The notes below the pieces were generated by a model. The model searched no databases, was not told where the DNA came from, and saw only the letters and a list, made by a program, of their open reading frames with translations. A stretch of DNA of 64,000 nt from Bacilli bacterium. GTDB lineage: Bacteria > Bacillota_I > Bacilli_A > RF39 > UBA660. Of this stretch, positions 43,987 through 62,301 are shown one piece after another (within the stretch, counting starts at the first letter, position 1; each line of letters begins with the position of its first letter). The DNA is taken from contig JBJEYJ010000086.1 in assembly GCA_051886655.1 (NCBI GenBank), forward strand, positions 38 through 64,037, given 5' to 3'. The position numbers and the translations under genes were made by a program.

Positions 43987-44099
43987 TGGATAGTGTTGTT
44001 GCAGCTTTATTAACGATAGCTTGGGCTAGTACCAAAAATAGAGATGTTAGTCAACAAGAAATAAAATCTGTTTATAAGAATATGAAAGATAGTTTGTAA
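43986..44099 (+). CDS. small protein of about 37 aa
   Basis: TAATG overlap with the upstream gene. Translation MDSVVAALLTIAWASTKNRDVSQQEIKSVYKNMKDSL. Confidence 0.3.
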   Translation: MDSVVAALLTIAWASTKNRDVSQQEIKSVYKNMKDSL

Positions 44100-44665
44100 A
44101 ATATGTTATCGTATTTAGATTTTAAAAATGGATTTGGAGATTTTTAAAACGAGGGCAAATTAATTTTCAATATTTAAAAAAATTTTTTCCCAAAACATAC
44201 TCCCCCCAGAAAAAGAAATAAGTACGTTCAGTAGATTAGACAAAATAAAAAAATGCACAATCGCTCAATAGCCCCAGATAAAAAAGATTTAAAATAAAAC
44301 TATTTAAATCTTTTTTCTTTGCTTAATGATGCGATAATCAAATGCGTCGGCTTGCCAGCGGCCAAGGCAAGCCGCTTTGAGGTTAATATAATAGCTTTGC
44401 AAATTTTTTTATAGCTTTCATGCAAACAGATGTTCATGTGATGTTCCTATAACTCAGTTGCATCAAGCACTACAGCTGTTTCCTTACAGTGTCAACAGAT
44501 CCAGATCTACAAGGCGCAAAAAATGAACAAATGTTTACATTCCTTGCAAGCCTTGATACTGTAGGGCTCTAGCTGCTGCCGCAAACATTTGTTTACCTCT
44601 TGTAGAAGTTTACATAATCACTTGCAAATAAAATAAAAAAAAATAAAAAATTTTAATCAAAATGC

Positions 44666-44694
44666 TTGACAAATAAACACAATGGGTGTATAAT
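44666..44694 (+). promoter_or_regulatory. early promoter cassette (TTGACA, 17 nt, TATAAT) preceded by an A/T-tract UP-like element
   Basis: Perfect consensus hexamers with 17-nt spacing. Confidence 0.6.
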
Positions 44695-44726
44695 AAGTAT
44701 GAAGATAAGGAAAGGAGCTGATTGGT

Positions 44727-45044
44727 ATGATAGAGTTACAAATAACACTATTTGATAAGAATAAAAAGTATAAGCCAATGAGTACAATAGTAAAGATAGA
44801 AAGTATTGATTATTACAATACACACAAAGCAGAAGTACAAAAAAGAGCAATAGAGAACATAGCACATCAAAGGAAGATGTTACCAAGTGAGATAATAAAA
44901 GCAGGTTATACACAAGTTAAAACAAGAGTGTATGACAAAGAAAAGATAAAAGAACAACAAGAACTACAACATAAAATAAATTTAATTAAATACATTGAAA
45001 GAAAAAGAGAAGAAAGAAAGGAAAGTGATAATCTATGAGAATAA
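44727..45044 (+). CDS. hypothetical protein of 103 to 105 aa
   Basis: Track ORF. Ends at TGA (45036) that overlaps the next ATG and is followed two codons later by in-frame TAA. Confidence 0.55.
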
Positions 45045-45367
45045 CAAAAGTAATAAAAATGGTAAAAAAAAGTAATGTATTAACAAAGCAAGAGAAAAGA
45101 GGACTAATCATAAAAGGACTAATAGAAACTATAGTCAATGTCTATAAGACTATAGTCAAAGTACCTTTTGCTATAATAGGAATGATACTTGTTACACTTG
45201 AAACACTATTACATACAATAGCAGAAGGAATAGAACTAATAGAACAAGTGTTTAGTTGTATAGTAATACTACTTGACGAGAAATTACCAGAATGTAGTTT
45301 AACAAAAGGTCAAGCAAGAGATAAATTGATAAAAGAAATAAAAACAAACACTTTTAAAGTAAAATAG
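45035..45367 (+). CDS. small membrane protein, 110 aa
   Basis: Track ORF with a hydrophobic core (FAIIGMILVTLETLL). Confidence 0.55.
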   Translation: MRITKVIKMVKKSNVLTKQEKRGLIIKGLIETIVNVYKTIVKVPFAIIGMILVTLETLLHTIAEGIELIEQVFSCIVILLDEKLPECSLTKGQARDKLIKEIKTNTFKVK

Positions 45368-45382
45368 AAAGGGTTGATAAAA

Positions 45383-45550
45383 ATGAAAAAATTTTTAATT
45401 TTAGTTATTTGTTTATTATTAGGATTTATAAGTGGCATTGTTTATACAATAGAAACAATGCAAGTAGACATAGTAAGTGAAACTAGCAAAGGTGCAGTTA
45501 TAAGAATAATAGTATTAAATCAATGGTTTAATCATTATGTAGAAAAATAA
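45383..45550 (+). CDS. small membrane or secreted protein of about 55 aa
   Basis: ATG after GGGTTGATAAAA. Translation MKKFLILVICLLLGFISGIVYTIE... Confidence 0.4.
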   Translation: MKKFLILVICLLLGFISGIVYTIETMQVDIVSETSKGAVIRIIVLNQWFNHYVEK

Positions 45551-45571
45551 AATAAAAAAATAAAAAAACTA

Positions 45572-45600
45572 TTGACAAAATACCTTTTAGGGTGTATAAT
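45572..45600 (+). promoter_or_regulatory. early promoter cassette (TTGACA, 17 nt, TATAAT)
   Basis: Consensus hexamers with an upstream A-tract. Confidence 0.6.
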
Positions 45601-45629
45601 AATTATAGAAAAAGGAAAGGTGATTTAAA

Positions 45630-46106
45630 ATGAAAAAAATATTTTTAGATTTAGATGGAACAGTAGCAAAGTTCAATGTGAGAAATGCTTTAAAAAGATT
45701 TGAAACAGAAAAAGGGTTCTTCGCAAAGTTAGGAGCATACAAAGGAATTGAAAAAATTAATGAAATGGCAAAATGCGGAAATGTTTACATAATTAGTGCA
45801 AGTCCTAATGAACAAGCAGATAGCGACAAAATGGAATGGATAGAAAAATACTTAAATAATGTACCAATGGAAAATAGACTAATTTGCAGATGTGGAGATA
45901 ATAAGGCAGAGTTCTTAAAAGCAAAAGGAATTGAAATTGACAAGAATTGCTACTTATTAGATGATTACACAAAAAACTTAATAGAGTGGGAAGAAGTTGG
46001 CGGAATTGGTATAAAAAGAATTACAAAAGTAGCAGACAATAGCAGAAAACTTTGGAAAGGTTTAGAAGTGAAAAATTTAGGCAACCTAGCAACAGTGGTT
46101 GCCTAA
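45630..46106 (+). CDS. HAD-superfamily 5'(3')-deoxyribonucleotidase-like phosphatase, 158 aa
   Basis: N-terminal FLDLDGTVAKF (DxDGT motif I). Size matches NT5C-type phage dNMP phosphatases. Confidence 0.65.
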   Translation: MKKIFLDLDGTVAKFNVRNALKRFETEKGFFAKLGAYKGIEKINEMAKCGNVYIISASPNEQADSDKMEWIEKYLNNVPMENRLICRCGDNKAEFLKAKGIEIDKNCYLLDDYTKNLIEWEEVGGIGIKRITKVADNSRKLWKGLEVKNLGNLATVVA

Positions 46107-46121
46107 TAGATAGGAGGAAAA

Positions 46122-46325
46122 ATGGAAGAAGTTTATCATTGCAAAAAATGTGGTAAAGAATTAGAGTGGGCTGATACAATAGACCATGAGGGAGGAATAC
46201 AAGAGGGTTACATAATAGAAAGACAAATTTGGACTTGTGAAGATTGCGACACCTCTTATGTAATAGAGCAAAGAGCGGATTTTCAAGAGCAAGATGTATC
46301 AACAATTTATTTTGAAGAAAGTTAA
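46122..46325 (+). CDS. zinc-ribbon protein, 67 aa
   Basis: CKKCGK...CEDCD four-Cys motif. Confidence 0.5.
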   Translation: MEEVYHCKKCGKELEWADTIDHEGGIQEGYIIERQIWTCEDCDTSYVIEQRADFQEQDVSTIYFEES

Positions 46326-46336
46326 TAGATTATGTA

Positions 46337-46364
46337 AACTGCGGCAACCGCAGTTTTTATTTTA
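46337..46364 (+). terminator. rho-independent terminator (AACTGCGG-CAAC-CCGCAGTT plus T-run), itself embedded in an inverted pair of ATTATGTAAAC / GTTTACATAAT
   Basis: Seen directly. Confidence 0.65.
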
Positions 46365-46462
46365 CATAATCTAGGGTAAACTAATTATGTAAACTATTCG
46401 CTGGCGCGCGTGCGGTTGTGGCGCGCCGTTTGACAGTTAACATAATCACTTGCAATAATTTG

Positions 46463-46496
46463 CGAACAAATGTACGCTTTTTCGAACAAATGTTCG
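46463..46496. promoter_or_regulatory. two tandem LexA 'Cheo' boxes: CGAACAAATGTACG (one mismatch) and CGAACAAATGTTCG (perfect Gram-positive SOS box)
   Basis: Firmicutes LexA consensus is CGAAC-N4-GTTCG. Centres are 20 bp apart. Confidence 0.55.
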
Positions 46497-46603
46497 CATC
46501 CCAAAACTCTTGATACTCTAGCGTTTGATCGGATCGCCGCAATCCTTACAGCCTCAAGGCATTGCCGCTCTTGAAAAAAATAAAAATTTTTTTTAAAAAA
46601 TGC

Positions 46604-46632
46604 TTGACAAACAATACAAATGGTAGTATAAT
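46604..46632 (+). promoter_or_regulatory. early promoter cassette (TTGACA, 17 nt, TATAAT)
   Basis: Consensus, with UP-like A/T tracts. Confidence 0.6.
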
Positions 46633-46663
46633 AATTACAGAGTTAAGGAAAGAGGGTATAAAA

Positions 46664-47362
46664 ATGAAAGTTGATAAAAGAAAAAAATATTTAATGGTTT
46701 TAGATGTAGAAACTACAAACAATATTATGGAAAAAGGAGCTCCAAACGATGGTTTGGTTTATGATATAGGTTTTACAATTATTGATAAACAAGGAAACAT
46801 TTACGCAAAAAGAAGTTTTGCAATTAAAGAAATATTTGATTGGAAAGAACTTATGTCTACTGCTTATTATGCTAAAAAATTACCTATTTATTATGAAAGA
46901 CTTAAACAAGGAAAAATGGAAAAGATTACAATTTGGCAAGCAAGAAAAAGAATACACCAAGCAATAGAATACTTTGGAATAAAAGAAGTGTATGCCTACA
47001 ATGCAAATTTTGATTATACAACATTAAATAATACAGTTAGATATTTAAGTGGAAGTGCTTGTCGTTGGTTTTTTCCTTATGGAACACAAATTTGTGATAT
47101 TTGGCACATTGCTTGTCAAACATTATGTCTACAAAAAACTTTCCAATGGGAAAATGTAAGAAATGCAAACAATAATTTAATTACAAATGCAGAAAGAGTG
47201 TTTGGCTATTGTGAACAAACAGATTTTGAAGAAGAACACACAGGGCTAGCCGATGCAATAGTAGAAAGTCAAATTTTAGCAAGATGTTTTAAATCACATA
47301 AAAGCATTGATAAAAAAATAAATAGGGCTTGTTGGAGAATACCACAACAAGCCACTGCCTAA
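46664..47362 (+). CDS. DEDDh-family 3'-5' exonuclease (DnaQ / RNase T-like), about 232 aa
   Basis: Exo I LVLDVETT, Exo II YAYNANFDY and Exo III HTGLADA motifs. RBS AAGGAAAGAGGG. All 6 Trp are TGG. Confidence 0.75.
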   Translation: MKVDKRKKYLMVLDVETTNNIMEKGAPNDGLVYDIGFTIIDKQGNIYAKRSFAIKEIFDWKELMSTAYYAKKLPIYYERLKQGKMEKITIWQARKRIHQAIEYFGIKEVYAYNANFDYTTLNNTVRYLSGSACRWFFPYGTQICDIWHIACQTLCLQKTFQWENVRNANNNLITNAERVFGYCEQTDFEEEHTGLADAIVESQILARCFKSHKSIDKKINRACWRIPQQATA

Positions 47363-47392
47363 AAAAAAAATAAAAATTTTTTTAAAAAAGTA

Positions 47393-47421
47393 TTGACAAA
47401 TAATACAAATGGTAGTATAAT
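47393..47421 (+). promoter_or_regulatory. early promoter cassette (TTGACA, 17 nt, TATAAT)
   Basis: Consensus. Confidence 0.6.
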
Positions 47422-47454
47422 AATTATAGAAGTTAGGAAAGAGGAGGAAAACAA

Positions 47455-47619
47455 ATGAAAGAGTTAGTAAAAAATTTAATAGGTGGAATAATTTTAACAG
47501 GTTTAGTACTAGGGTTCTTCTATTTACTAGGAATAGTAGAAATGATAATAGAAAGACATTTTTGGTTAATGATACCACTAACAATTTATGTAATCTATTT
47601 AATATTAAAAGAAATTTAA
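47455..47619 (+). CDS. small membrane protein of about 54 aa
   Basis: GAGGAGG RBS. Two predicted TM segments. Not in the track because it is shorter than 60 aa. Confidence 0.45.
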   Translation: MKELVKNLIGGIILTGLVLGFFYLLGIVEMIIERHFWLMIPLTIYVIYLILKEI

Positions 47620-47628
47620 AAAAAAGTA

Positions 47629-47657
47629 TTGACAAATATTAAAAAATAGAATATAAT
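47629..47657 (+). promoter_or_regulatory. early promoter cassette
   Basis: TTGACA, 17 nt, TATAAT. Confidence 0.55.
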
Positions 47658-47684
47658 ATAATAAAGAAAGGGAAGGTGATAACA

Positions 47685-47915
47685 ATGATAACTTTTAAGT
47701 CAATAACAGTTTTAAAGTTAATCCAAGAAAAACTTTTTAATCAAACAGAGGATTTTGAAGAAGAATATTACTTTATTGTAAATGATATTTTCTTTCCTAT
47801 TCAAGAAATATTTGTTTTTGAAGGTGGGATAGAAGTAAAAAATACATCTTATGATATAGACATTGAAATAAAAGCAAATGAAAAAGACTTGATCTGGAAA
47901 AAAGAAGAAGAATAA
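47685..47915 (+). CDS. hypothetical protein of about 76 aa
   Basis: GGAAGGTG RBS then ATG. Confidence 0.5.
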   Translation: MITFKSITVLKLIQEKLFNQTEDFEEEYYFIVNDIFFPIQEIFVFEGGIEVKNTSYDIDIEIKANEKDLIWKKEEE

Positions 47916-47941
47916 AAAATAAAAATTTTTTCAAAAAAGTA

Positions 47942-47970
47942 TTGACAAACAAAAGAAAAAGTAGTATAAT
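47942..47970 (+). promoter_or_regulatory. early promoter cassette
   Basis: TTGACA, 17 nt, TATAAT, followed by a long structured leader. Confidence 0.55.
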
Positions 47971-48058
47971 AAAAGTACAATAAGGGTAGGGTAAAAAGTT
48001 GATAATAACCTACGGTAGCAACTCATAAATAAAATTTTTGAAAGGTTAGGTGGTAGTT

Positions 48059-48427
48059 ATGGCAAACAAAGTAACTAAAAAAGAAAGATTTATGGAGTTA
48101 TTAAACATTAGAGAGGTAGCAGAAAATGCGGAAATGGTAGAGTTCATTAATCACGAACTAGAACTATTAAATAAAAAAAGTGCAAAAAGTGGTATGACAG
48201 CAAATCAAAAAGTAAATGAAGGACTAAAAGAGGTTATTACAGAACATTTAAAACTAGCAGGAAGAGCAATGACAATTACAGAACTACAAAGCGAAATTAA
48301 AGAAATTGCAGAATTAAGTAATCAAAAAGTAAGTGCATTACTAACACAACTTGTAAATACTAATGTAATCATTAGAGAGAAAGACAAAAAGACAACATTG
48401 TTCAAATACAACGATGAACAAATATAG
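48059..48427 (+). CDS. paralog family A member 1: small protein with a C-terminal winged-helix-like region (regulator?)
   Basis: Shares ELELL.KK.AKSGMTANQKVNE and a C-terminal SNQK.SALL..LV.T...KDKK.T.F block with 50242..50607 (plus strand) and 55363..55719 (minus strand). Confidence 0.6.
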   Translation: MANKVTKKERFMELLNIREVAENAEMVEFINHELELLNKKSAKSGMTANQKVNEGLKEVITEHLKLAGRAMTITELQSEIKEIAELSNQKVSALLTQLVNTNVIIREKDKKTTLFKYNDEQI

Positions 48428-48556
48428 ATAGAGGGCGAAAGCCCTTTATTTTTATGTTAAGTGCAGAAACAGATGTTTGGTTTCCAGTATGCAACTGATT
48501 ATGTAAACCAAAATTTTGTTCGCCGGCGCGTCGTGGATTGTGACGCGCCGTTTGAC

Positions 48557-48570
48557 AGAACAGTTGTTCG
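48557..48570. promoter_or_regulatory. LexA Cheo box AGAACAGTTGTTCG (perfect GAAC-N4-GTTC core)
   Basis: Intergenic, next to a GTTTACATAAT motif. Confidence 0.5.
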
Positions 48571-48630
48571 GTTTACATAATTTTTTTTCCAATTTTTTCC
48601 AGTTTACATAATCTGTTGACTCCTAAAACT

Positions 48631-48642
48631 GAACATCTGTTC
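48631..48642. promoter_or_regulatory. LexA Cheo box GAACATCTGTTC (perfect core)
   Basis: Lies 70 bp upstream of an early promoter -35. Confidence 0.5.
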
Positions 48643-48710
48643 ATACTAAATCTCGCAGATCAGCTTGGGAGTAAGGATCGCCGCATTATAAAGAATTTTT
48701 TAAAAAAATG

Positions 48711-48739
48711 CTTGACAAACACGCTATAAAGTAGTATAA
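48711..48739 (+). promoter_or_regulatory. early promoter cassette
   Basis: TTGACA, 17 nt, TATAAT. Confidence 0.6.
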
Positions 48740-48758
48740 TAATTATAGTAAAGGAAAG

Positions 48759-49223
48759 GTGATACAAATGAACTTGATTAAAAAATTTTATGTTAAACAA
48801 TTCGTACATTCTATTGATAAAAATATTAAAGTTAAATTTGGAAAAAATTTACAATGCGACATAGAAAATCAAACAATTTATGTAACTAATAAAACTGATA
48901 AAATAGATATTCAAACTTTTAAAGAGTATGTAAGAGAATTGAATAGTAAATGTTTTTTTAATACTTTTATTTTAGGAATATTACACGAAATAGGACATAT
49001 TTACACTTATGATGAAAGAGATGAGGAAGAATATTTTAGAGATAACGAACTATTAACACTACTTTTTCAAGAGAAAAAAATTGATGCCGTAGATTTTAAT
49101 AAATTCTATCTAAGATTAGAAATGGAGAAAAAAGCAACTCAATGGGCTATTGATTTTTCAATGTTAAATAAAGATTTTTGTAAAAAATATCAAAAAAAAT
49201 TAGGCAAAGAAATTTATAAATAG
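48759..49223 (+). CDS. HExxH metallopeptidase-like protein (ImmA/IrrE/DUF955-like?), 154 aa
   Basis: GILHEIGHIYTYDERDEEE: an HEIGH zinc-binding motif in a protein of about 150 aa, the size of ImmA-type anti-repressor proteases. Confidence 0.5.
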   Translation: MIQMNLIKKFYVKQFVHSIDKNIKVKFGKNLQCDIENQTIYVTNKTDKIDIQTFKEYVRELNSKCFFNTFILGILHEIGHIYTYDERDEEEYFRDNELLTLLFQEKKIDAVDFNKFYLRLEMEKKATQWAIDFSMLNKDFCKKYQKKLGKEIYK

Positions 49224-49226
49224 GGG

Positions 49227-49255
49227 TTGACAAAAGCCCCTAACTATGTTATAAT
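49227..49255 (+). promoter_or_regulatory. early promoter cassette
   Basis: TTGACA, 17 nt, TATAAT. Confidence 0.55.
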
Positions 49256-49281
49256 AGTATTATAGAAAGGAAGATGTAAAA

Positions 49282-49500
49282 ATGAGAAAAGATATTTTTA
49301 AAAATGCTAATCAAGTAAGAGCAACAGCCGAAGACTATAATGCAAAATGTTGTAAAAGATATAAAGGACAAGGAAAAATATTAAGAAGATACGCAAGACA
49401 CAAATTAAATGAACATGATAAAGAAGAAATAAGACAGGTATTAGCATTTCAAAAAAATATAAATTTTTACAAAATTAAAAAGGAAAGGAATTGATAATTA
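49282..49500 (+). CDS. basic small protein of about 71 aa
   Basis: Track ORF. Ends TGA then TAA (TGATAA). Confidence 0.45.
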
Positions 49501-49838
49501 TGAAAAAAGAACCAATGCAAATTTTGTATATTTTAAGAAATGGAGAAACAAATCAGTATAAAATAGGAATTACAGATAATCTAAATAGAAGATTATCTCA
49601 ACTACAAACTGGTTGTCCAGAAGAATTACAGATAATTAAATTATGGAAACATTATCAAAGAAACATAGTCAAAAGATATGAAAGAGTGTTGCATAGATAT
49701 TTTACAAAATGTGGTTGTAGAATAAGACCAAATGGAGAATGGTTTAATTTAAAACAAGTTGATATAAATTATTTATGTAAACCAAATACAATAGCAGAAC
49801 AAAATGAGATAATAGAAAATTTATTAGAAATGATGTAA
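49500..49838 (+). CDS. GIY-YIG / T5orf172-type domain protein, about 112 aa
   Basis: ILYILRNGETNQYKIGITDNLNRRLSQ matches the Y..L....-YKIG.T.N...R pattern. Confidence 0.5.
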   Translation: MKKEPMQILYILRNGETNQYKIGITDNLNRRLSQLQTGCPEELQIIKLWKHYQRNIVKRYERVLHRYFTKCGCRIRPNGEWFNLKQVDINYLCKPNTIAEQNEIIENLLEMM

Positions 49839-49872
49839 AGTGCGGGCTTCCGCACTTTTTCTACATAACTCT

Positions 49873-49990
49873 AGAACAAATGTTTCCACGAACGATCGTT
49901 TGGAGCCCGTTTCGCAGGTTTACATAATAACTTAACATTTTTCATTATGAAAAATTATTTTCAGATCGAACATTTGTACTCCTAAAACTC
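49873..49990. promoter_or_regulatory. cluster of three one-mismatch Cheo-like boxes (AGAACAAATGTTTC, CGAACGATCGTTTG, CGAACATTTGTACT) interleaved with GTTTACATAAT motifs
   Basis: Intergenic region upstream of the double promoter at 50045 to 50164. Confidence 0.35.
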
Positions 49991-50044
49991 GTCGCAGTTT
50001 ACATAATGTATTGCAAATAAAATAAAAATTTTTTTTAAAAAGTA

Positions 50045-50073
50045 TTGACTTTTTATAATAATTATAGTATAAT
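50045..50073 (+). promoter_or_regulatory. promoter (TTGACT, 17 nt, TATAAT)
   Basis: First promoter of a tandem pair. Confidence 0.5.
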
Positions 50074-50135
50074 AATTATAGTCAAAAGGAAATAGAAAAT
50101 CTTAAAAATTAATTTTAAGAAATTTTAAAAAACTC

Positions 50136-50164
50136 TTGACAAACAAAACAAAAAATGTTATAAT
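50136..50164 (+). promoter_or_regulatory. promoter (TTGACA, 17 nt, TATAAT)
   Basis: Second promoter of the tandem pair. Its leader contains a GAAC..GTTC hairpin. Confidence 0.55.
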
Positions 50165-50241
50165 AATTATAACAAAGGAAGATAAAAAACCTTGAGAACT
50201 TCCTGTAAAGGTTCATAAAAATAAAAATAAAAAATTGAAAG

Positions 50242-50607
50242 GTGGAATGTATTATGGCAAACAAAAAAACAAAAAGAGAATTATTTGGAGAAATCAGAGA
50301 AATTGTAGTAGGAAATGAAGAACTTGTAAACTTCATAGACCACGAATTAGAACTATTAGACAAGAAACACGCAAAAAGTGGAATGACAGCAAATCAAAAA
50401 GTAAATGCTGAAATAGTTGACAAATTATACAGTGCATTAGTTGAAGTTGAAACAGCCCTAACAATAAATGAAATCCAAGAACAATTTGATTTTACCAAAG
50501 AATTAAGTAATCAAAAAATAAGTGCATTATTAAAGAAATTAGTTGATACTGGAAAAGTTGAAAGAATAAAAGACAAAAAAGTTACAAGATTTCAAGCAAT
50601 AGTATAG
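50242..50607 (+). CDS. paralog family A member 2, 121 aa
   Basis: See 48059..48427. C-terminus is SNQKISALLKKLVDTGKVERIKDKKVTRF. Confidence 0.6.
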   Translation: MECIMANKKTKRELFGEIREIVVGNEELVNFIDHELELLDKKHAKSGMTANQKVNAEIVDKLYSALVEVETALTINEIQEQFDFTKELSNQKISALLKKLVDTGKVERIKDKKVTRFQAIV

Positions 50608-50661
50608 AGTAAGGGGCAAATGCCCCTACTCAAAAAAAAATAAAATTTTTTCAAAATACTA

Positions 50662-50690
50662 TTGACAAATTTTCTCAATAGTAGTATAAT
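50662..50690 (+). promoter_or_regulatory. early promoter cassette
   Basis: TTGACA, 17 nt, TATAAT. Confidence 0.55.
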
Positions 50691-50714
50691 AATAATAGAA
50701 AAGGAGTTGATAGT

Positions 50715-51125
50715 ATGATAGTAAAAATTAAAAATAAGGAAGTAAAAATTCCAGAAGAAGAAATTAAAAAGAATATGAAAATACTTGACATAACAGAAGA
50801 AGAAGCAATACAAATGTATTTAGAAGATGAAGGTTATGAGGTTAATGAAGAAGTAGAAAAGTTGACTAAAAAGGCAAAAGAAAATAATATAAAAATAAGG
50901 GGCGACAGTGATAAACCTAGAGCCAAGCGAAATATAGAACGCAAAACAAATCCAGTTAAAGAAGAAGTTATACAAATATTAGCACAGACACTAGCAAATT
51001 ATGGAAACCTTAATATTCATAATGTAAAAGTGGAAAATATTGGAAAACTTATTACTTTTAATGTAGGAGAGCGTCAATTCAAACTAGATTTAATAGAAAA
51101 AAGACCTCCAAAAGCCTCAAAATAG
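50715..51125 (+). CDS. paralog family B member 1, 136 aa
   Basis: Shares LTKKAKEN...DKPRAKR...NIGKLI.F...KLDLI with 54038..54439 on the minus strand. Confidence 0.6.
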   Translation: MIVKIKNKEVKIPEEEIKKNMKILDITEEEAIQMYLEDEGYEVNEEVEKLTKKAKENNIKIRGDSDKPRAKRNIERKTNPVKEEVIQILAQTLANYGNLNIHNVKVENIGKLITFNVGERQFKLDLIEKRPPKASK

Positions 51126-51353
51126 GGCTTTTTACAAAAGAAAAAGGCTAAAAGGCTTGAAAAATCTTGTCTTTTGGTTGAAAATGGCGGAAATGAGCGA
51201 ATAATCGCTCATTTTTTCGCGTTTTAGGCGAACTTTTGTTTAAATTTACATAAAATAATGTAAATTTTTGTAAAAAATGGTTGAAAGTGTTGCGGCTGTA
51301 GGGATTTAGCAGGTTTACATAATTTGCCGGCTCGGCGTGGAGCGCCTTTGAGC

Positions 51354-51367
51354 CGAACACGCGTTCT
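51354..51367. promoter_or_regulatory. LexA Cheo box CGAACACGCGTTCT
   Basis: Perfect GAAC-N4-GTTC core in a long non-coding region. Confidence 0.45.
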
Positions 51368-52032
51368 AAAATACCTATATGCGATTTTTTCGTAGGTTTT
51401 GGGCTTTATGCTCTTTTTCTCTAGCTTCCTGAAACCTCTTAGGTTTACATAATAACTTTACAGGCGCGATTCCAGATTCTTTTAACCTACATCCGCGCAA
51501 TATGCAAAATTGCCATAGTTTCAGGCTTCTTTATGACTTGATTTTTTTAAAAATTTTTGATATAATACTAAAAAAACTTAAAATATTGCCGCATAAAACC
51601 AAAAATAAAGTTGACATTTTAAGCCAACTTTTTTCTTTAAAATCATTCTCATGCTTTCATATTTGCCCCATCTACTTTTAACTAAAATTTTAAACAAAAG
51701 CAAATGTATCTGCCTAATAAAAAATTTTACTTCCATCTCTATACTTTAACTAACTGGGGGCCGCGCTCTTTTTAAGGACAGACTTTCCATTATATCATCT
51801 TTATTATATTATATCAAATTTTTTATAAAATATCAACTTTAATAAAATTTGCCACAATTTTTTAAATTATTTTCCTTGATCCTTCCTATTTCACATGAGT
51901 GCAATAGTCAAGCAAAATGAGAAGCAAAATAATATCTCTAACTTTTACAAATTAAAAAAAGAAGAAAAAAATATTCTTTTCTTTTATTGCGGAGACGGAG
52001 ATACGAGGATCTGTTAACCCAGGTCGCCGCAT

Positions 52033-52061
52033 TTGCAAATTATAAAAAAATATGATATAAT
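52033..52061 (+). promoter_or_regulatory. promoter (TTGCAA, 17 nt, TGaTATAAT extended -10)
   Basis: Preceded by a GGTCGCCGCA element. Confidence 0.5.
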
Positions 52062-52087
52062 AAATATATAAATAGTAAGGAGGAAAA

Positions 52088-52474
52088 GTGAAAATAATGA
52101 AAAATATGAATGTCAAAGATATGTTAAAAGCAGGTGTATCTGCAAAAGACTTAAGAAATAAACTAGAACAAGAAATAGAAAAAGCAACAGCCGCAATAAA
52201 AGAAGAAGCTGAAGATAAAAAAGTTGGTTTAATGAGAAAAAGATTAGTTGATGCGGCAATTGATTATATGCAAGCTATGGACTGGTTAGAAGAAGGATTA
52301 AATGAAGAAGACAGGCAAGACTTAGTTGAAGTATTAAAAGATTTAGAAGATGAGCTTGGAACTTATGTAGATATTATAAAATTATTGATTAGAAAAGAAA
52401 CTAATAAAAATAAAAAGAAAGATAATGGTTCTACTGCTGAAGATATAATCAATAAATTTTTAGGTACACTATAA
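52088..52474 (+). CDS. helical hypothetical protein, 128 aa
   Basis: Track ORF. AAGGAGG RBS. Confidence 0.6.
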   Translation: MKIMKNMNVKDMLKAGVSAKDLRNKLEQEIEKATAAIKEEAEDKKVGLMRKRLVDAAIDYMQAMDWLEEGLNEEDRQDLVEVLKDLEDELGTYVDIIKLLIRKETNKNKKKDNGSTAEDIINKFLGTL

Positions 52475-52527: not shown

Positions 52528-52617
52528 TTTGTTTTTTGAGTAGCGGAATATAATAAAAAATAGTACGAATTCTATTTTTATAAGGATTGAGAAATAAAAC
52601 ATTTAAAACGCGCTCGG

Positions 52618-52740
52618 GCCACCACAAATTCCACAAATGCCACATATCTACAAATCTACATATCTATATACTCGCATATCTACACTATATACTACATATC
52701 TACATATCTATATACATACATTATATCTCCATATACTTGC
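52618..52740. repeat. array of short direct repeats: CCACAAAT x3 followed by about six ATATCTA(C/T)A units
   Basis: Seen directly: ccacaaattccacaaatgccacatatctacaaatctacatatctatatactcgcatatctacactatatactacatatctacatatctatatacat... Confidence 0.75.
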
Positions 52741-52797
52741 ACGCACCTTATTTCTCTATCTCTCCAATTCCTCATTTCTATTTTCAAAAAGTAATTC

Positions 52798-54037: not shown

Positions 54038-54439
54038 CTATTTCCTCCTTTGAATTAAATCTAATTTATATTTATTACCGTCACATTCAAATTCTATAAG
54101 TTTACCAATATTAGTTATTTTTAAATGTTCTACACCATCTAAATTAGTTAGCATTTGAGCAACTGCGGCAATTATTCTTTCTTTTGTTGGATTTTCCTTT
54201 CTAGTAACTTCTCTCTTTGCTCTTGGCTTATCTTCAGCTTTTGCTTCATGAATTGTTGCGGTAATCCTATTTTCTTTTGCTTTTTTAGTTAATCTTTCTT
54301 CTTGTTCATTTTTAATATAATCATTATCGGCTAACCATGTATCTATGGCTTCTTGCATTGATATTTCAAGAGTATCAACTAATCTATCTATTTCCTCATC
54401 TGGAATTTCAATTATTTTATTTTCAAATTTATATTTCAT
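54038..54439 (-). CDS. paralog family B member 2, 133 aa
   Basis: See 50715..51125. Driven by a TTGACT, 17 nt, TGaTATAAT promoter near 54470. Confidence 0.6.
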   Translation of the reverse strand: MKYKFENKIIEIPDEEIDRLVDTLEISMQEAIDTWLADNDYIKNEQEERLTKKAKENRITATIHEAKAEDKPRAKREVTRKENPTKERIIAAVAQMLTNLDGVEHLKITNIGKLIEFECDGNKYKLDLIQRRK

Positions 54440-55362: not shown

Positions 55363-55719
55363 TTATTCACTCTCTTTTATAGAGAATAATGTAACCTTTT
55401 TGTCTTTTACTCTTACTACTCTATTAGTATCTACTAATTTCTTTAAAAGAGCAGACATTTTTTGATTTGAGAAATCAGCTATTGTTTCATCTTCAGCTTG
55501 GATTTCAGCAACAGTAGCAGGTTTTCCTAATCTTGCTAATGCTTCATATACAACTTCTACTAATCCTTCATTTTCTTTTTGTGTTTTTGTTTGAGCAAAT
55601 TTTCTATTTGCTAATCTTTCAATTTCTTTTTCGCAGAATTCTACTGCTCCTTGTTCTCCAGCCTCAACAGCTAAATCTCTTAAAACTCCTAAATAATCTT
55701 TTTTTGTCATTTTTTCCAT
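55363..55719 (-). CDS. paralog family A member 3, 118 aa
   Basis: C-terminus SNQKMSALLKKLVDTNRVVRVKDKKVTLF. Preceded by two tandem TTGATT, 17 nt, TATAAT promoters (55773..55801 and 55858..55886). Confidence 0.6.
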   Translation of the reverse strand: MEKMTKKDYLGVLRDLAVEAGEQGAVEFCEKEIERLANRKFAQTKTQKENEGLVEVVYEALARLGKPATVAEIQAEDETIADFSNQKMSALLKKLVDTNRVVRVKDKKVTLFSIKESE

Positions 55720-58165: not shown

Positions 58166-58456
58166 TTATTCAAGAAACAAATATCCTATTTCTAATGGGA
58201 TAATTTTTAAATGATATGCATAACATTCATTTATATTTTTAGGGGCTATAAAAGATTCAACTACAGCCCCTATTTCTTTTATTACATCAAAAGTGTTATC
58301 TTTTTCATATGGAAATATAGTAGCTTTAAGAGCGGCAACCGCATCTTCATAAGTATTATATGGACTTATAAAAGATTGTCTTATAATTTCATTTGAATTT
58401 TCTAAAAACATATAACATTCTGCTTTTATACCAAATACATTAAGCATTCTCATCAT
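58166..58456 (-). CDS. hypothetical protein, 96 aa
   Basis: Track ORF. Overlaps the upstream gene by 17 nt. Confidence 0.5.
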   Translation of the reverse strand: MMRMLNVFGIKAECYMFLENSNEIIRQSFISPYNTYEDAVAALKATIFPYEKDNTFDVIKEIGAVVESFIAPKNINECYAYHLKIIPLEIGYLFLE

Positions 58457-59990
58457 CCTCCATATTTGTAATTATATTCCAATTACATAAATAATTTGTT
58501 GCATATGGAGAAATTGTTGTAGTAATTCCTTCTGTTAATGCTGACTCCACTTGTTTATCTACTATTTTTTTAATCTCAGTATTAAGATCTTCAGTAGTAA
58601 AATGTGTAACTAAGCTATCATTATTTTCTGATTCTTCTTCCATTTCCTCTTTATATCTAGGACAATCCTTACAATGGTCATAATTACTACACATAACTCC
58701 ATCATCTATATAACGAAAACTTGGATTATCACATTCTTCATTATCTAAATCACATTGAGGATGTTCATCTTGCCAATATCCACAATCAGAGCAATTACAT
58801 TCACAACATGAAGTACATCCTTCTCTACAATAGTCATCAGCTAAATCACACCAATATCTCATATTAAAATGTTCTGCTACAAACCCTTCTCCATTATAAT
58901 CTGCTTCTGCTTCATCATCTGGATATGTTGGTGGTAAAAAGTCTCCACATCCGCAAGGACATAGTATTTCTTCATTAAATACTGTAAATTCTGTTTCATT
59001 TTTTGTATCTTTTAAAGTCCAAATTCTTTCATCAGAATACTCAGAATATCCATATCCATGTTCTCTATAACAATTGCAATCCCAATTCTTTTTCCATTTA
59101 TTTTCTTTATTATGACATTTTGCTACTACTTCTTCAACTATTTCTCTTAATTCTTTTTCAAAATCTTCATCATAATCTTTGCCAGGATATATACAGTTGA
59201 AATGTATTGATGTCATATTTGGAGATAAAGCAATCCATTGACGCATTCTTTTATATCTTATATTTTTAAATTTATAAGTATCATATAAATCAAATTTTCC
59301 TTCATTATTCCAAACATAAGTAATTAAGCTAGCATTATCTAAAACTGCGGCAAGGCATCCATCTGCATGAGAGTCATCTCTATTTAATTCTAGTCTATAA
59401 CAAGAGGTCCAATCATATGGATTTTCTGAAGCTAACATCATATCAACTGGATCGATAGAAATAGTGTAATTAGCTTTTACCTTTTGATTTTCAAAAATCT
59501 TTCCTATTTCTGTTACTAACTCATCTGGTGCATTTAAACAAGATTTAAAAAAATGTGTAATTGAACTTCCATCTAATCTATATTGTGGAAATAGATCTTT
59601 TATAGCGTCTCTTACTTCATATCCAATTTTGTATGCTTCTATTTTATTATTTATTTGTCTTGTGAAACCTTTTAACCAAAGTGCAAAAATTGGAAATTTT
59701 TTAGAAATATCATTTATTTCATTTTCAATATCTTGTCTTTGTCTATTATATTCAAAAGCAACATCTAATCTAGTTTTATTACCAAGCATTTTATAAAAAT
59801 TATATTTATTTGTAGCCCAAGTAATTAAATAACTTTTTATTACTGCATCTGGAATTTTAGAAATATTTAATCCAGAAAATTGAGCTATACATTTTGTAAA
59901 ATCTGGAATATTAACTTCCTTTAACATTGATATATATTTTTCTGATTCCGTTCCTTCCATATTATCTATTAAATCACAAGTTTTTAACAT
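58440..59990 (-). CDS. large hypothetical protein, 516 aa, with a Cys-rich (about 25 Cys) acidic C-terminal region
   Basis: Uninterrupted ORF. CPCGCGD...CREGCTSCCECNCSDCGYW...CDNPS...CKDCPRY cluster. Promoter at 60039..60067. Confidence 0.6.
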   Translation of the reverse strand: MLKTCDLIDNMEGTESEKYISMLKEVNIPDFTKCIAQFSGLNISKIPDAVIKSYLITWATNKYNFYKMLGNKTRLDVAFEYNRQRQDIENEINDISKKFPIFALWLKGFTRQINNKIEAYKIGYEVRDAIKDLFPQYRLDGSSITHFFKSCLNAPDELVTEIGKIFENQKVKANYTISIDPVDMMLASENPYDWTSCYRLELNRDDSHADGCLAAVLDNASLITYVWNNEGKFDLYDTYKFKNIRYKRMRQWIALSPNMTSIHFNCIYPGKDYDEDFEKELREIVEEVVAKCHNKENKWKKNWDCNCYREHGYGYSEYSDERIWTLKDTKNETEFTVFNEEILCPCGCGDFLPPTYPDDEAEADYNGEGFVAEHFNMRYWCDLADDYCREGCTSCCECNCSDCGYWQDEHPQCDLDNEECDNPSFRYIDDGVMCSNYDHCKDCPRYKEEMEEESENNDSLVTHFTTEDLNTEIKKIVDKQVESALTEGITTTISPYATNYLCNWNIITNMEDDENA

Positions 59991-60756: not shown

Positions 60757-62301
60757 CTATTTTATTACTTCATATCTTTCACTCATTAGTTTTTCATACA
60801 TTATATCTATTCCTTTTACTCCACGAATTATTTGTTCAAATAAAACTGGTGTGCATCCTGATACAAATGATACATTTGGTCCAGAATCAAGAATAGTATT
60901 ATCTCTCGCATCAACATTCCAATATACTAGATGTGGAAGTATTAAACCATCTTCCGCCCATTCTTGTCTTATTTTTTCCATTTCTGTTGCTGTATTTTCT
61001 TTTGTCCAACAATCGTCATCATCATCATACCAATATCTTCCTGAACCAGATCCACTATCTATTTCCATATCAGAAATTACTATAAGTGTAGTAGGAATGT
61101 CTTCTTCTCTTATGCCATCTTTAAGTATCATATTTTTTAGCATATTAAACACTGCTGGTAAATTAGTATTTTCACATTGATTTCTTCTATATACTCTTGC
61201 TACTTTATCTGCAAAATCTACTCCTTCAAATTTTATTAATTCAGGATGTTGTGAGAATGTAATAAAATAATCTTTGAAAGGACCGCCTATTCTTTCAGCG
61301 CAGTACATACCTAATGATAATGCAACATCTATTGGCTTAGTAGAACCATTATAAGAATCCATACTTCCAGATGTATCTATAATTGTCATTATTTTACAAG
61401 CCTCTCCTTTTAAATAATCTGGTAAATTTTCCCAATATTTTTCTACCATTTTTCTATCAGTGTCAGACATATCTATATCATCATTCCAATATCCAATATT
61501 ATTAGTTACTTTATTTACTACTTCATATGGGAATAAAGTCTTAGCATTTACTTTTGTATCTTTATCTTTTGCAAAAGTTTCATATTTTTTAGCAATTATA
61601 TCTCTTCTTGCAAAAGCATTCTTATATATTAATCCAGCTTTTGAAGGAATTTTGTCAAATTCAATTTCGTCCCATCTATTTTCACTCATTAATCTTTCAA
61701 CAATATTTATTTTCTTTCTTAATATAGCTAATACTTTTCTATATTGTTTATGAGTCATCTTTAAGTATTTTCTTACTTTATTTGCCATTTTTTTAGTGTG
61801 ATGTGCAGAAGCATTTTCAGATGGTAACCATTTTCCTAAAAGTGAAGGTGTTTTGCTTTCTAAGTCAAGAGCTAATTGTTCTCTTACTAAAAATAAAGCA
61901 TAATCTTCCATTTTAGTTCCATCAGTTGCATATAATAAATCATCCCATCTGCCATACTCAGATAATTGATTTAAGTTTCTTTTTGCGGCATCTGGATAAT
62001 TATCGCATAACCATTTAAAACATATACGGAAAAATCTTCTTTCGCCTTGACCTCCACGAATATCTCTTAAATAAAATAAACATTTTAAAGCCATAATTTC
62101 ATCTTCTTCTATTGCATTTTTAAACAATAGAATGCAATCAGCTTCACTTCTTTTTCTATAAGCTCCACCAAGAGCAAACATATCATATACAGCTGAGTTA
62201 GTTGCTTTATGAGCTACTGCTCCATTTTCTGTATATTTATAATTTGTTATGTCTTTTAAACTGTTTATAAAACTATTACAATTTTCAAACATTTTTTCCA
62301 A
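60757..62301 (-). CDS. TROVE-like (DUF2828-type) plus von Willebrand A domain protein, 514 aa; Ro60-like architecture
   Basis: C-terminal vWA MIDAS motif IIDTSGSMDS. The N-terminal ~300-aa region preceding the vWA MIDAS motif matches the domain order of Ro60/TROVE and DUF2828 proteins (TROVE-like assignment by architecture only; HHpred needed). TAG stop followed by a hairpin terminator. Promoter at 62356..62384. Confidence 0.55.
   Translation of the reverse strand: MEKMFENCNSFINSLKDITNYKYTENGAVAHKATNSAVYDMFALGGAYRKRSEADCILLFKNAIEEDEIMALKCLFYLRDIRGGQGERRFFRICFKWLCDNYPDAAKRNLNQLSEYGRWDDLLYATDGTKMEDYALFLVREQLALDLESKTPSLLGKWLPSENASAHHTKKMANKVRKYLKMTHKQYRKVLAILRKKINIVERLMSENRWDEIEFDKIPSKAGLIYKNAFARRDIIAKKYETFAKDKDTKVNAKTLFPYEVVNKVTNNIGYWNDDIDMSDTDRKMVEKYWENLPDYLKGEACKIMTIIDTSGSMDSYNGSTKPIDVALSLGMYCAERIGGPFKDYFITFSQHPELIKFEGVDFADKVARVYRRNQCENTNLPAVFNMLKNMILKDGIREEDIPTTLIVISDMEIDSGSGSGRYWYDDDDDCWTKENTATEMEKIRQEWAEDGLILPHLVYWNVDARDNTILDSGPNVSFVSGCTPVLFEQIIRGVKGIDIMYEKLMSERYEVIK

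Follow-up and report, generated by a model that had tools for sequence, protein, structure and literature searches.

A small gene in the early region of a phage genome probably codes for a gluzincin-type zinc metallopeptidase, soluble and stand-alone, which would belong to an early-gene family of uncultured gut phages and cleave one specific cytoplasmic protein or a few. The gene is carried on the + strand of a 64,000-nucleotide stretch of contig JBJEYJ010000086.1, assigned to a Bacilli bacterium (hereafter the window); this stretch is a phage genome encoding a large terminase, a portal protein, an endolysin and a tail protein. The product is called here the HEIGH protein after its HExxH motif. 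Zinc binding, peptidase activity, expression timing and target are put forward as predictions. A previous reading of the window from its letters only (the sequence-only reading) had pointed to a zinc-metallopeptidase-like HExxH protein of ~150 residues, and this part of it is confirmed, as the open reading frame (ORF) is real and HEIGH forms residues 73-77.

Gene, family and predicted structure

In the ORF listing of the window, the gene is open on the + strand from GTG 48759 or ATG 48768 to position 49223. Because all homologues and an identical NCBI protein of 151 aa ('MAG: hypothetical protein ACI4PE_03345 [Bacilli bacterium]') begin at ATG 48768, this codon was taken as the true start, 9 nt inside the coordinates given by the sequence-only reading; GTG 48759 falls within the ribosome-binding site (AAAGGAAAGGTG). 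No hydrophobic segments are found in the sequence of the 151-aa protein, which is modelled as a compact soluble domain.

A word-indexed search recovered 171 close relatives of 65-73% identity, none of which bears a Pfam domain or a name, and an exhaustive HMMER profile search extended the family to 413 representatives of clusters formed at 50% identity (E<=1e-3), nearly all of 140-170 aa. HE[IVLM]GH is kept in every family member covering the region, with one HEVYH exception. Conservation was assessed in an alignment of 129 full-length members with 18-45% identity to the query, in which H73, E74, H77 and E120 are the only invariant columns, followed by L72, G76, T80, Y114, A123 and W126, conserved at >=90%. 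The conservation of HExxH among homologues expected by the sequence-only reading is thus found and the motif is not a chance occurrence. The acidic stretch noted downstream of it (YDERDEEEYFRD, residues 81-92) is present but is not conserved across the family, whose conserved downstream element is rather Y..LP.E..AT.WA around E120. By sequence, the four invariant residues correspond to the gluzincin signature, in which two His and a distal Glu are the ligands and another Glu is catalytic. Zinc would therefore be predicted to be bound by H73, H77 and E120, the last acting as putative third ligand, with E74 as the candidate catalytic base.

Scans of the query alone against Pfam and PHROGs recognised nothing, and a scan of all 129 members against NCBIfam gave nothing meaningful. 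The sole PHROGs result over the 129 members was a weak match of four of them to phrog_87, 'metallo-protease'. When the same members were scanned against Pfam, their weak matches fell almost only on zincin families, namely DUF4344 (11 members), Peptidase_M78 (8, best 3.2e-4), Peptidase_Mx (7), Zincin_1 (6), Reprolysin_3 (5), M60 (4), M54 (3) and MPTase-PolyVal (3). Such scattered similarities point, at the sequence level, to a zincin without preference for M78.

The family is rare in curated collections. Neither tblastn of the query against 50,697 deposited phage genomes nor megablast of the surrounding 8 kb against phages and plasmids gave a match. A locus scan with the close alignment found one IMG/VR locus, no GTDB genome and five metagenome loci, and ten sampled clusters derive only from raw metagenome assemblies with no names attached. 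A pattern scan of 185,579 GTDB species genomes found no relatives and, therefore, no sign of prophages. The family is absent from Pfam, PHROGs v4 and NCBIfam, is previously undescribed and constitutes a new family within a well-known kind of enzyme.

The AlphaFold2 (AF2) model of the protein, computed from a 20-sequence alignment, reached a predicted local distance difference test score (pLDDT) of 92.7 and a predicted template modelling score (pTM) of 0.87. It consists of helix 3-16, strands 21-24, 29-31 and 36-39, helix 48-58 and helix 66-79 carrying HExxH, after which come helices 83-101 and 107-115, helix 118-133 with E120 and helix 135-145. The model thus has the features expected of a zincin, with HExxH on a helix, a Glu on a later helix and three strands before the active-site helix. 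In a fold search of BFVD, the best hit was a predicted 159-aa phage protein named 'Peptidase' (E 5.4e-4, template modelling score (TM) 0.63), the sole significant fold match, followed by a phage protein named 'Lethal factor'.

Several observations weigh against an active zinc peptidase. Foldseek returned no significant match to solved zincin structures, the best structure in the Protein Data Bank (PDB) being the MtfA-like 3dl1 at E 1.3, and profiles built from the 20- and 129-member alignments gave no match to PDB sequences at E<=10. The meeting of H73, H77 and E120 at one zinc site is presumed. In addition, the phage protein Rir shows that an HExxH protein may work through binding, with no cleavage involved (PMC6868357). 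The HEIGH protein could accordingly be another metal-dependent hydrolase, such as an HD-type phosphohydrolase, or a non-catalytic binder with a relic motif, an explanation that we hold to be very improbable. It draws on the precedent of Rir, on the resemblance of LLHEIGH to the HD motif LLHDIGK and on weak HD-domain matches of the query (E 0.11) and of 8 of the 129 members. On the other side, the invariant set of H, E, H and a distal E is exactly the gluzincin signature, whereas the alignment has no invariant upstream His or downstream Asp of the kind needed by an HD domain; the three-stranded sheet before the motif helix is unlike the all-helical HD domains, and the strict invariance of E74 argues for catalysis. 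An HD-domain phosphohydrolase was consequently rejected as a candidate, given the weak PF01966 matches (E>=0.045), the lack of invariant HD metal residues and the sheet in the model.

Comparison with ImmA/IrrE and other HExxH proteins

The sequence-only reading had assigned the protein to COG2856/DUF955 (Peptidase_M78, PF06114), which includes ImmA of ICEBs1, IrrE/PprI of Deinococcus and Rir. Both groups share a small size, the HE[ILV]GH motif, a frequent phage origin and an order of helix, three strands, HExxH helix and later Glu helix in an E..A[NT].[FW]A-like context. As a positive control, Sfi21 orf122, an M78 protein of the Rir/orf122 type, was carried through the comparisons; by tblastn it matches the 'putative metallo-proteinase' of phage TP-J34 at 100% identity, and the COG2856 protein of this phage is Rir (PMC6868357). 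While the control matches PF06114 at 6e-14, the query showed no match to this profile at E<=10 and neither did nine family and subfamily consensus sequences; the weak matches of the eight members listed above are on par with those to DUF4344, Peptidase_Mx and Zincin_1.

The profile-profile comparison suggested by the sequence-only reading, run as hhalign between the 129-member alignment and an M78 alignment, aligned only 16 columns around HExxH with a probability of 71%, and local hidden Markov model (HMM) alignments of the family and M78 in both directions were driven by LLHExGH alone. The M78 profile was narrow (number of effective sequences, Neff, 1.7) because searches with Sfi21 orf122 returned Streptococcus-phage relatives only, and a positive control was therefore added in Foldseek. 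The control model (pLDDT 85.7), made of a helix, three strands, the HExxH helix and the Glu helix, retrieved IrrE/PprI at ranks 1-3 (3dti, 8sln, 3dte), followed by a Mycobacterium tuberculosis transcriptional regulator (6d2s/6cz6), selecase, jannalysin, abylysin, Wss1, BlaR1 and lethal factor. None of these, from IrrE/PprI to lethal factor, was recovered with the HEIGH model in the same search. Since the control recovers IrrE/PprI and the HEIGH model does not, the negative result is meaningful at the sensitivity of Foldseek.

The two folds also differ in detail, as the HEIGH protein has an extra helix (48-58) before the HExxH helix and two extra helices (83-115) after it. With these two helices inserted, E120 lies 43 residues past the second His, compared with 17 in orf122, within a motif common to other gluzincins. 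Membership of M78 is consequently not upheld, the PF06114, hhalign and Foldseek comparisons all giving it no support, and what links the HEIGH family to M78 is a resemblance of motif and topology, not demonstrated membership.

The role attached to this assignment was that of an ImmA/IrrE-type protease cleaving or titrating an XRE-type repressor after DNA damage. COG2856 genes pair with an adjacent XRE-family repressor gene (PMC6868357). The sequence-only reading had itself seen no obvious XRE partner in the window, which proved correct, as no HTH_XRE match was found among the neighbours and other small proteins of the window, and the search that it proposed for an adjacent gene of this kind was negative in the homologue contexts as well. 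These comprised 12 loci looked up in public assemblies (L001-L008 and L090-L093), in which no XRE gene occurs among the called genes, and L094, in which an ORF scan found none either. Relatives of integrase, cI, cro and Ant were not detected in the window by a search of limited sensitivity that took in some, not all, of the late-region proteins; when all ORFs of the window were searched by phmmer with the Sfi21 proteins Int, cI, Cro and Ant, nothing scored below E 0.04. In place of a lysogeny module, which is a further difference from M78, the gene has its own consensus promoter in an early array of lytic type. An anti-repressor role is thus left unsupported.

Two structural traits nevertheless speak for an enzyme of this type. 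The linear layout is M78-like, with an N-terminal helix, three strands, LLHE[IVL]GH and a later E..A[TN].WA to compare with E.EAN.FA in M78, and EADANKWA, reminiscent of the M78 Glu helix, is read in one subfamily consensus. To these may be added the weak PF06114 and phrog_87 matches already described and the boxes discussed in the next section. Set against the missing profile and fold matches, the stretched spacing, the missing XRE partner and the lack of any prophage sign, they make an ImmA/IrrE-type protease providing a second SOS layer decidedly unlikely.

Other known systems were compared in the same way. The minigluzincins (selecase, proabylysin, projannalysin) and the M48/M56 cores offer a similar minimal soluble scaffold of ~100-150 aa with HExxH and a Glu helix; minigluzincin and M56 (BlaR1/MecR1) structures were recovered with the M78 control, not with the HEIGH model. 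BlaR1 cleaves the winged-helix repressor BlaI, and the HEIGH gene lies near a winged-helix family with weak Penicillinase_R similarity; BlaR1 and MecR1 differ in their membrane and sensor domains, which the HEIGH protein lacks. MtfA (Peptidase_M90) supplied the best PDB fold matches of the model, 3dl1 and 3khi, which are non-significant (E 1.3-3.9, TM about 0.24) and are no evidence of relatedness. A likeness to lethal factor is seen in the name of the second BFVD match. Conserved Y114 lies a few residues before E120 in the HEIGH family, and MtfA and lethal factor-like gluzincins also carry a conserved Tyr a few residues before the Glu ligand; both are much larger than the HEIGH protein. Finally, MPTase-PolyVal and ArdC-type zincin domains are said, in work by Iyer et al. 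in 2017, to be expressed or delivered early by mobile elements against host defences. The weak matches of three family members to MPTase-PolyVal (PF18818) are not significant, and these domains belong to large polyvalent or single-stranded DNA-binding proteins while the HEIGH protein stands alone.

Promoters, LexA-like boxes and repeats

Ten perfect promoters (12/12 positions of TTGACA-N17-TATAAT) occur on the + strand between 44666 and 50690, each before a successive small gene, so that nearly all genes of this array have one. That of the HEIGH gene (Table 1) belongs to a repeated 82-nt module (family D1, 8 copies) that includes an A/T-rich element upstream. The arrangement recurs in homologues: of 9 contexts, 5 have a perfect promoter whose 3' end lies 25-28 nt ahead of the start codon, and three others have a site agreeing with the consensus at 10-11 of the 12 positions. 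The family gene is preceded by this arrangement in L001, L006, L090 and L093. The layout of one promoter per gene is likewise found in related loci, 12 perfect promoters being present within 10 kb of L001, and all homologue loci (GC content 26-41%) are one-directional arrays of small unannotated genes. Because a hairpin over the stop codon and the promoter of the next gene follow it, the HEIGH gene is regarded as its own transcription unit. The loop and 3' arm of this hairpin, TAGGGGTTGACAAAAGCCCCTA, carry the -35 hexamer of the next gene, so that a terminator-like stem overlaps a promoter.

The presence of Cheo/LexA-like boxes around the gene, as announced by the sequence-only reading, is confirmed, two of them being located upstream. 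The core GAACN4GTTC occurs 4 times in the window (0.23 expected), always in the early island and twice near the gene (48558 and 48631), and CGAACN4GTTCG with <=2 mismatches occurs at 13 sites (2.7 expected), 11 of which lie within 44.4-51.4 kb. A weaker promoter-like site, TTGACA-N18-CATAAT, is found at 48552-48581 around the first of the two boxes. A similar box stands ~140-180 nt upstream of the start in five of the seven loci of the close clade, namely the window, L001, L095, L096 and L097; among relatives of 48-73% protein identity it lies at -143 to -181 in L001, L095, L096 and L097 and at -356 in L094. The association of box and gene is therefore real in the close clade, and this conservation also favours the SOS-linked reading of the protein. 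No such box was found in the distant family loci L004-L008 and L090-L093, however, and the boxes of the window do not overlap the perfect promoter, lying ~70 nt or more upstream of its -35 hexamer. Consequently, SOS control is not a property of the protein family, and the two-layer SOS-responsive switch that had been proposed from the boxes and the HEIGH motif does not find support.

Various repeats accompany these boxes. The first box is part of the right arm of a long imperfect inverted repeat, and a similar inverted repeat is found upstream of the homologue in L001, where the sequence of the G+C stem differs and its pairing is kept, the structure thus being conserved and the sequence not. 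Composite intergenic modules holding long imperfect hairpins with perfect G+C stems together with Cheo/LexA-like boxes are present at 46326-46603 (with a tandem box pair at 46461-46498), 48428-48711, 49839-50135, 51126-51500 and about 44400-44640. A further element of these modules, GTTTACATAA / TTATGTAAAC, has 12 copies (0.37 expected), all within 44.6-51.5 kb. Rfam recognised nothing over the whole window at gathering scores, nor in the early region 44000-52200 at E<=1.

Table 1. Features of the HEIGH gene and its surroundings, in positions of the window.
Feature	Position	Strand	Remark
Upstream neighbour, 122-aa protein with winged-helix-like C-terminus	48059..48427	+	Weak TrmB and Penicillinase_R similarity in its family
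Long imperfect inverted repeat bounded by ATTATGTAAACC / GGTTTACATAAT	48498..48581	.	Encloses a perfect 9-bp G+C stem, 48524-48532 / 48542-48550
Cheo/LexA-like box AGAACAGTTGTTCG	48557..48570	.	In the spacer of the weaker promoter-like site; part of hairpin right arm
Cheo/LexA-like box TGAACATCTGTTCA	48630..48643	.	~70 nt upstream of the -35 hexamer of the main promoter
Perfect sigma-70/sigma-A type promoter TTGACA-N17-TATAAT of the HEIGH gene	48712..48740	+	Ends 27 nt before the ATG
Ribosome-binding site AAAGGAAAGG	48750..48759	+	8 nt 5' of ATG 48768; read from the sequence
HEIGH gene, TAG stop included	48768..49223	+	Identical 151-aa NCBI protein; AF2 model
HExxH codons H73-E74-I75-G76-H77	48984..48998	+	Sequence; helix 66-79 from the AF2 model
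Codons Y114..E120, start of the Y..LP.E..AT.WA motif	49107..49127	+	E120 at 49125-49127, presumed third zinc ligand, helix 118-133
Hairpin TAGGGGTTGACAAAAGCCCCTA over the HEIGH stop codon	49221..49255	+	Perfect promoter of the next gene, 49227-49255, embedded

Neighbouring genes, recoding and possible targets

The gene directly upstream belongs to a family of winged helix-turn-helix-like (wHTH) proteins of ~120 aa, of which the window encodes three paralogues, the two others at 50254-50607 (+) and 55363-55719 (-). One paralogue has similarity to TrmB (3.1e-4) and to Penicillinase_R, PF03965 (9.7e-4; 19.9 bits for a cut-off of 22.6), both below the Pfam cut-offs. The downstream neighbour, at 49282-49494, is a basic protein of 70 aa, and a T5orf172/MUG113 protein, an NT5C-like nucleotidase and a phrog_20187 protein are also encoded nearby.

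This neighbourhood raises the question of a partnership, in which the zincin would cleave the phage's own wHTH regulator and so time the early-to-middle switch. The regulator might then bind the GTTTACATAA repeats, whose copies are confined to the early region, and the pair would resemble BlaR1-BlaI or ImmA-ImmR in its working, with a different DNA-binding fold, and would belong to neither. In 7 of 9 contexts a wHTH gene occurs within 3 kb of the HEIGH-family gene on the same strand; in the window and in the distant locus L090 it is the immediate upstream neighbour. The weak Penicillinase_R and TrmB similarities would suit such a regulator. The order of the two genes is not fixed, however; the wHTH matches stay below the cut-offs, and no wHTH gene is present in the available DNA of L004 and L005. 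Members of other early families, phrog_20187 among them, recur as well, and because shared ancestry of the early module explains the proximity equally well, cleavage of a wHTH partner is considered unlikely.

The genetic code separates the early genes from the rest of the window. The late genes (1.7-42.6 kb; 1763-42573, - strand) only make sense with TGA read as Trp, which raises ORF coverage from 33 to 55 kb and reveals ORFs of 1559 and 2801 aa with 15 and 25 in-frame TGA codons, respectively. Trp is encoded in the late genes by 97 TGA and 33 TGG codons, as against at most 10 TGA and 52 TGG codons in the early + strand island (42.7-52.5 kb) and the right arm. The HEIGH gene, with no in-frame TGA and a sole Trp codon that is TGG, sits in this code-neutral early array. 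The use of TGA resembles the stop-codon recoding of late genes by phages, yet no tRNA gene, hence no suppressor tRNA, was found in the window by ARAGORN.

Other features of the window and of related loci were recorded in passing. Two look-alike proteins of 133-136 aa are encoded at 50715-51125 (+) and 54038-54439 (-), their similarity being judged by eye and unaligned; together with the wHTH paralogues they flank ~51-54 kb on opposite strands, as if part of the two early arms had been copied in inverted orientation. At 52600-52760, where the early island has ended and the - strand right arm has yet to begin, lies a G-poor stretch of degenerate ATATCTACA-like units that may represent an origin, a site of packaging or an end of the genome. 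In a 516-aa protein (58440-59990, -), which has no Pfam match, the C-terminal half is very rich in Cys, with numerous CxxC-like pairs. A DUF2828/DUF7788 protein of ~510 aa is encoded at 60757-62301 (-), and in L004 (2597-4174) and L005 (2733-4244) a gene of this kind lies immediately upstream of the HEIGH-family gene or one gene away; in both loci a calcineurin-like phosphoesterase homologue is also near, annotated Metallophos in L004. Close relatives of the early region are on contigs of 144-151 kb (L001 151,110 bp, L097 146,680 bp, L094/L098 143,829 bp), compared with 64.3 kb for that of the window, so phages differing widely in genome size may share this early module, or the large contigs may be chimeric or host-linked.

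Returning to the reading of the HEIGH protein as an early gluzincin, its gene would be transcribed directly upon infection, from a consensus promoter of its own recognised by the sigma-A RNA polymerase of the host, and its expression would precede the switch of the phage to reading TGA as Trp. The protease would then act on one specific cytoplasmic protein or a small set of them. A host protein would be the likeliest target, in the service of takeover or anti-defence, which is presumably the default for genes in such arrays; the alternative would be an early regulator of the phage itself.

A bolder form of this reading would make the protein the founder of a family of early phage zincins, widespread and so far unannotated, acting as regulatory or counter-defence proteases in a virulent recoded phage. 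In that case the protease might time the phage programme by cleaving the wHTH early regulators or a host repressor, for example LexA on the Cheo-like boxes, or else might destroy a host immunity protein before the switch to TGA as Trp; its working would be like that of ImmA-ImmR or BlaR1-BlaI, with unrelated parts. Taken as a whole, this extended scenario is rather unlikely.

Taken together, these results guard against annotating the HEIGH protein as ImmA/IrrE, and its phage as temperate and SOS-inducible, by motif resemblance alone. If the protein is an active protease, it would extend the repertoire of uncultured gut phages by a compact proteolytic tool that is expressed early, and its substrate, once identified, could point to a host defence or regulator that these phages must remove first, or to a new protease-controlled step in a developmental switch.
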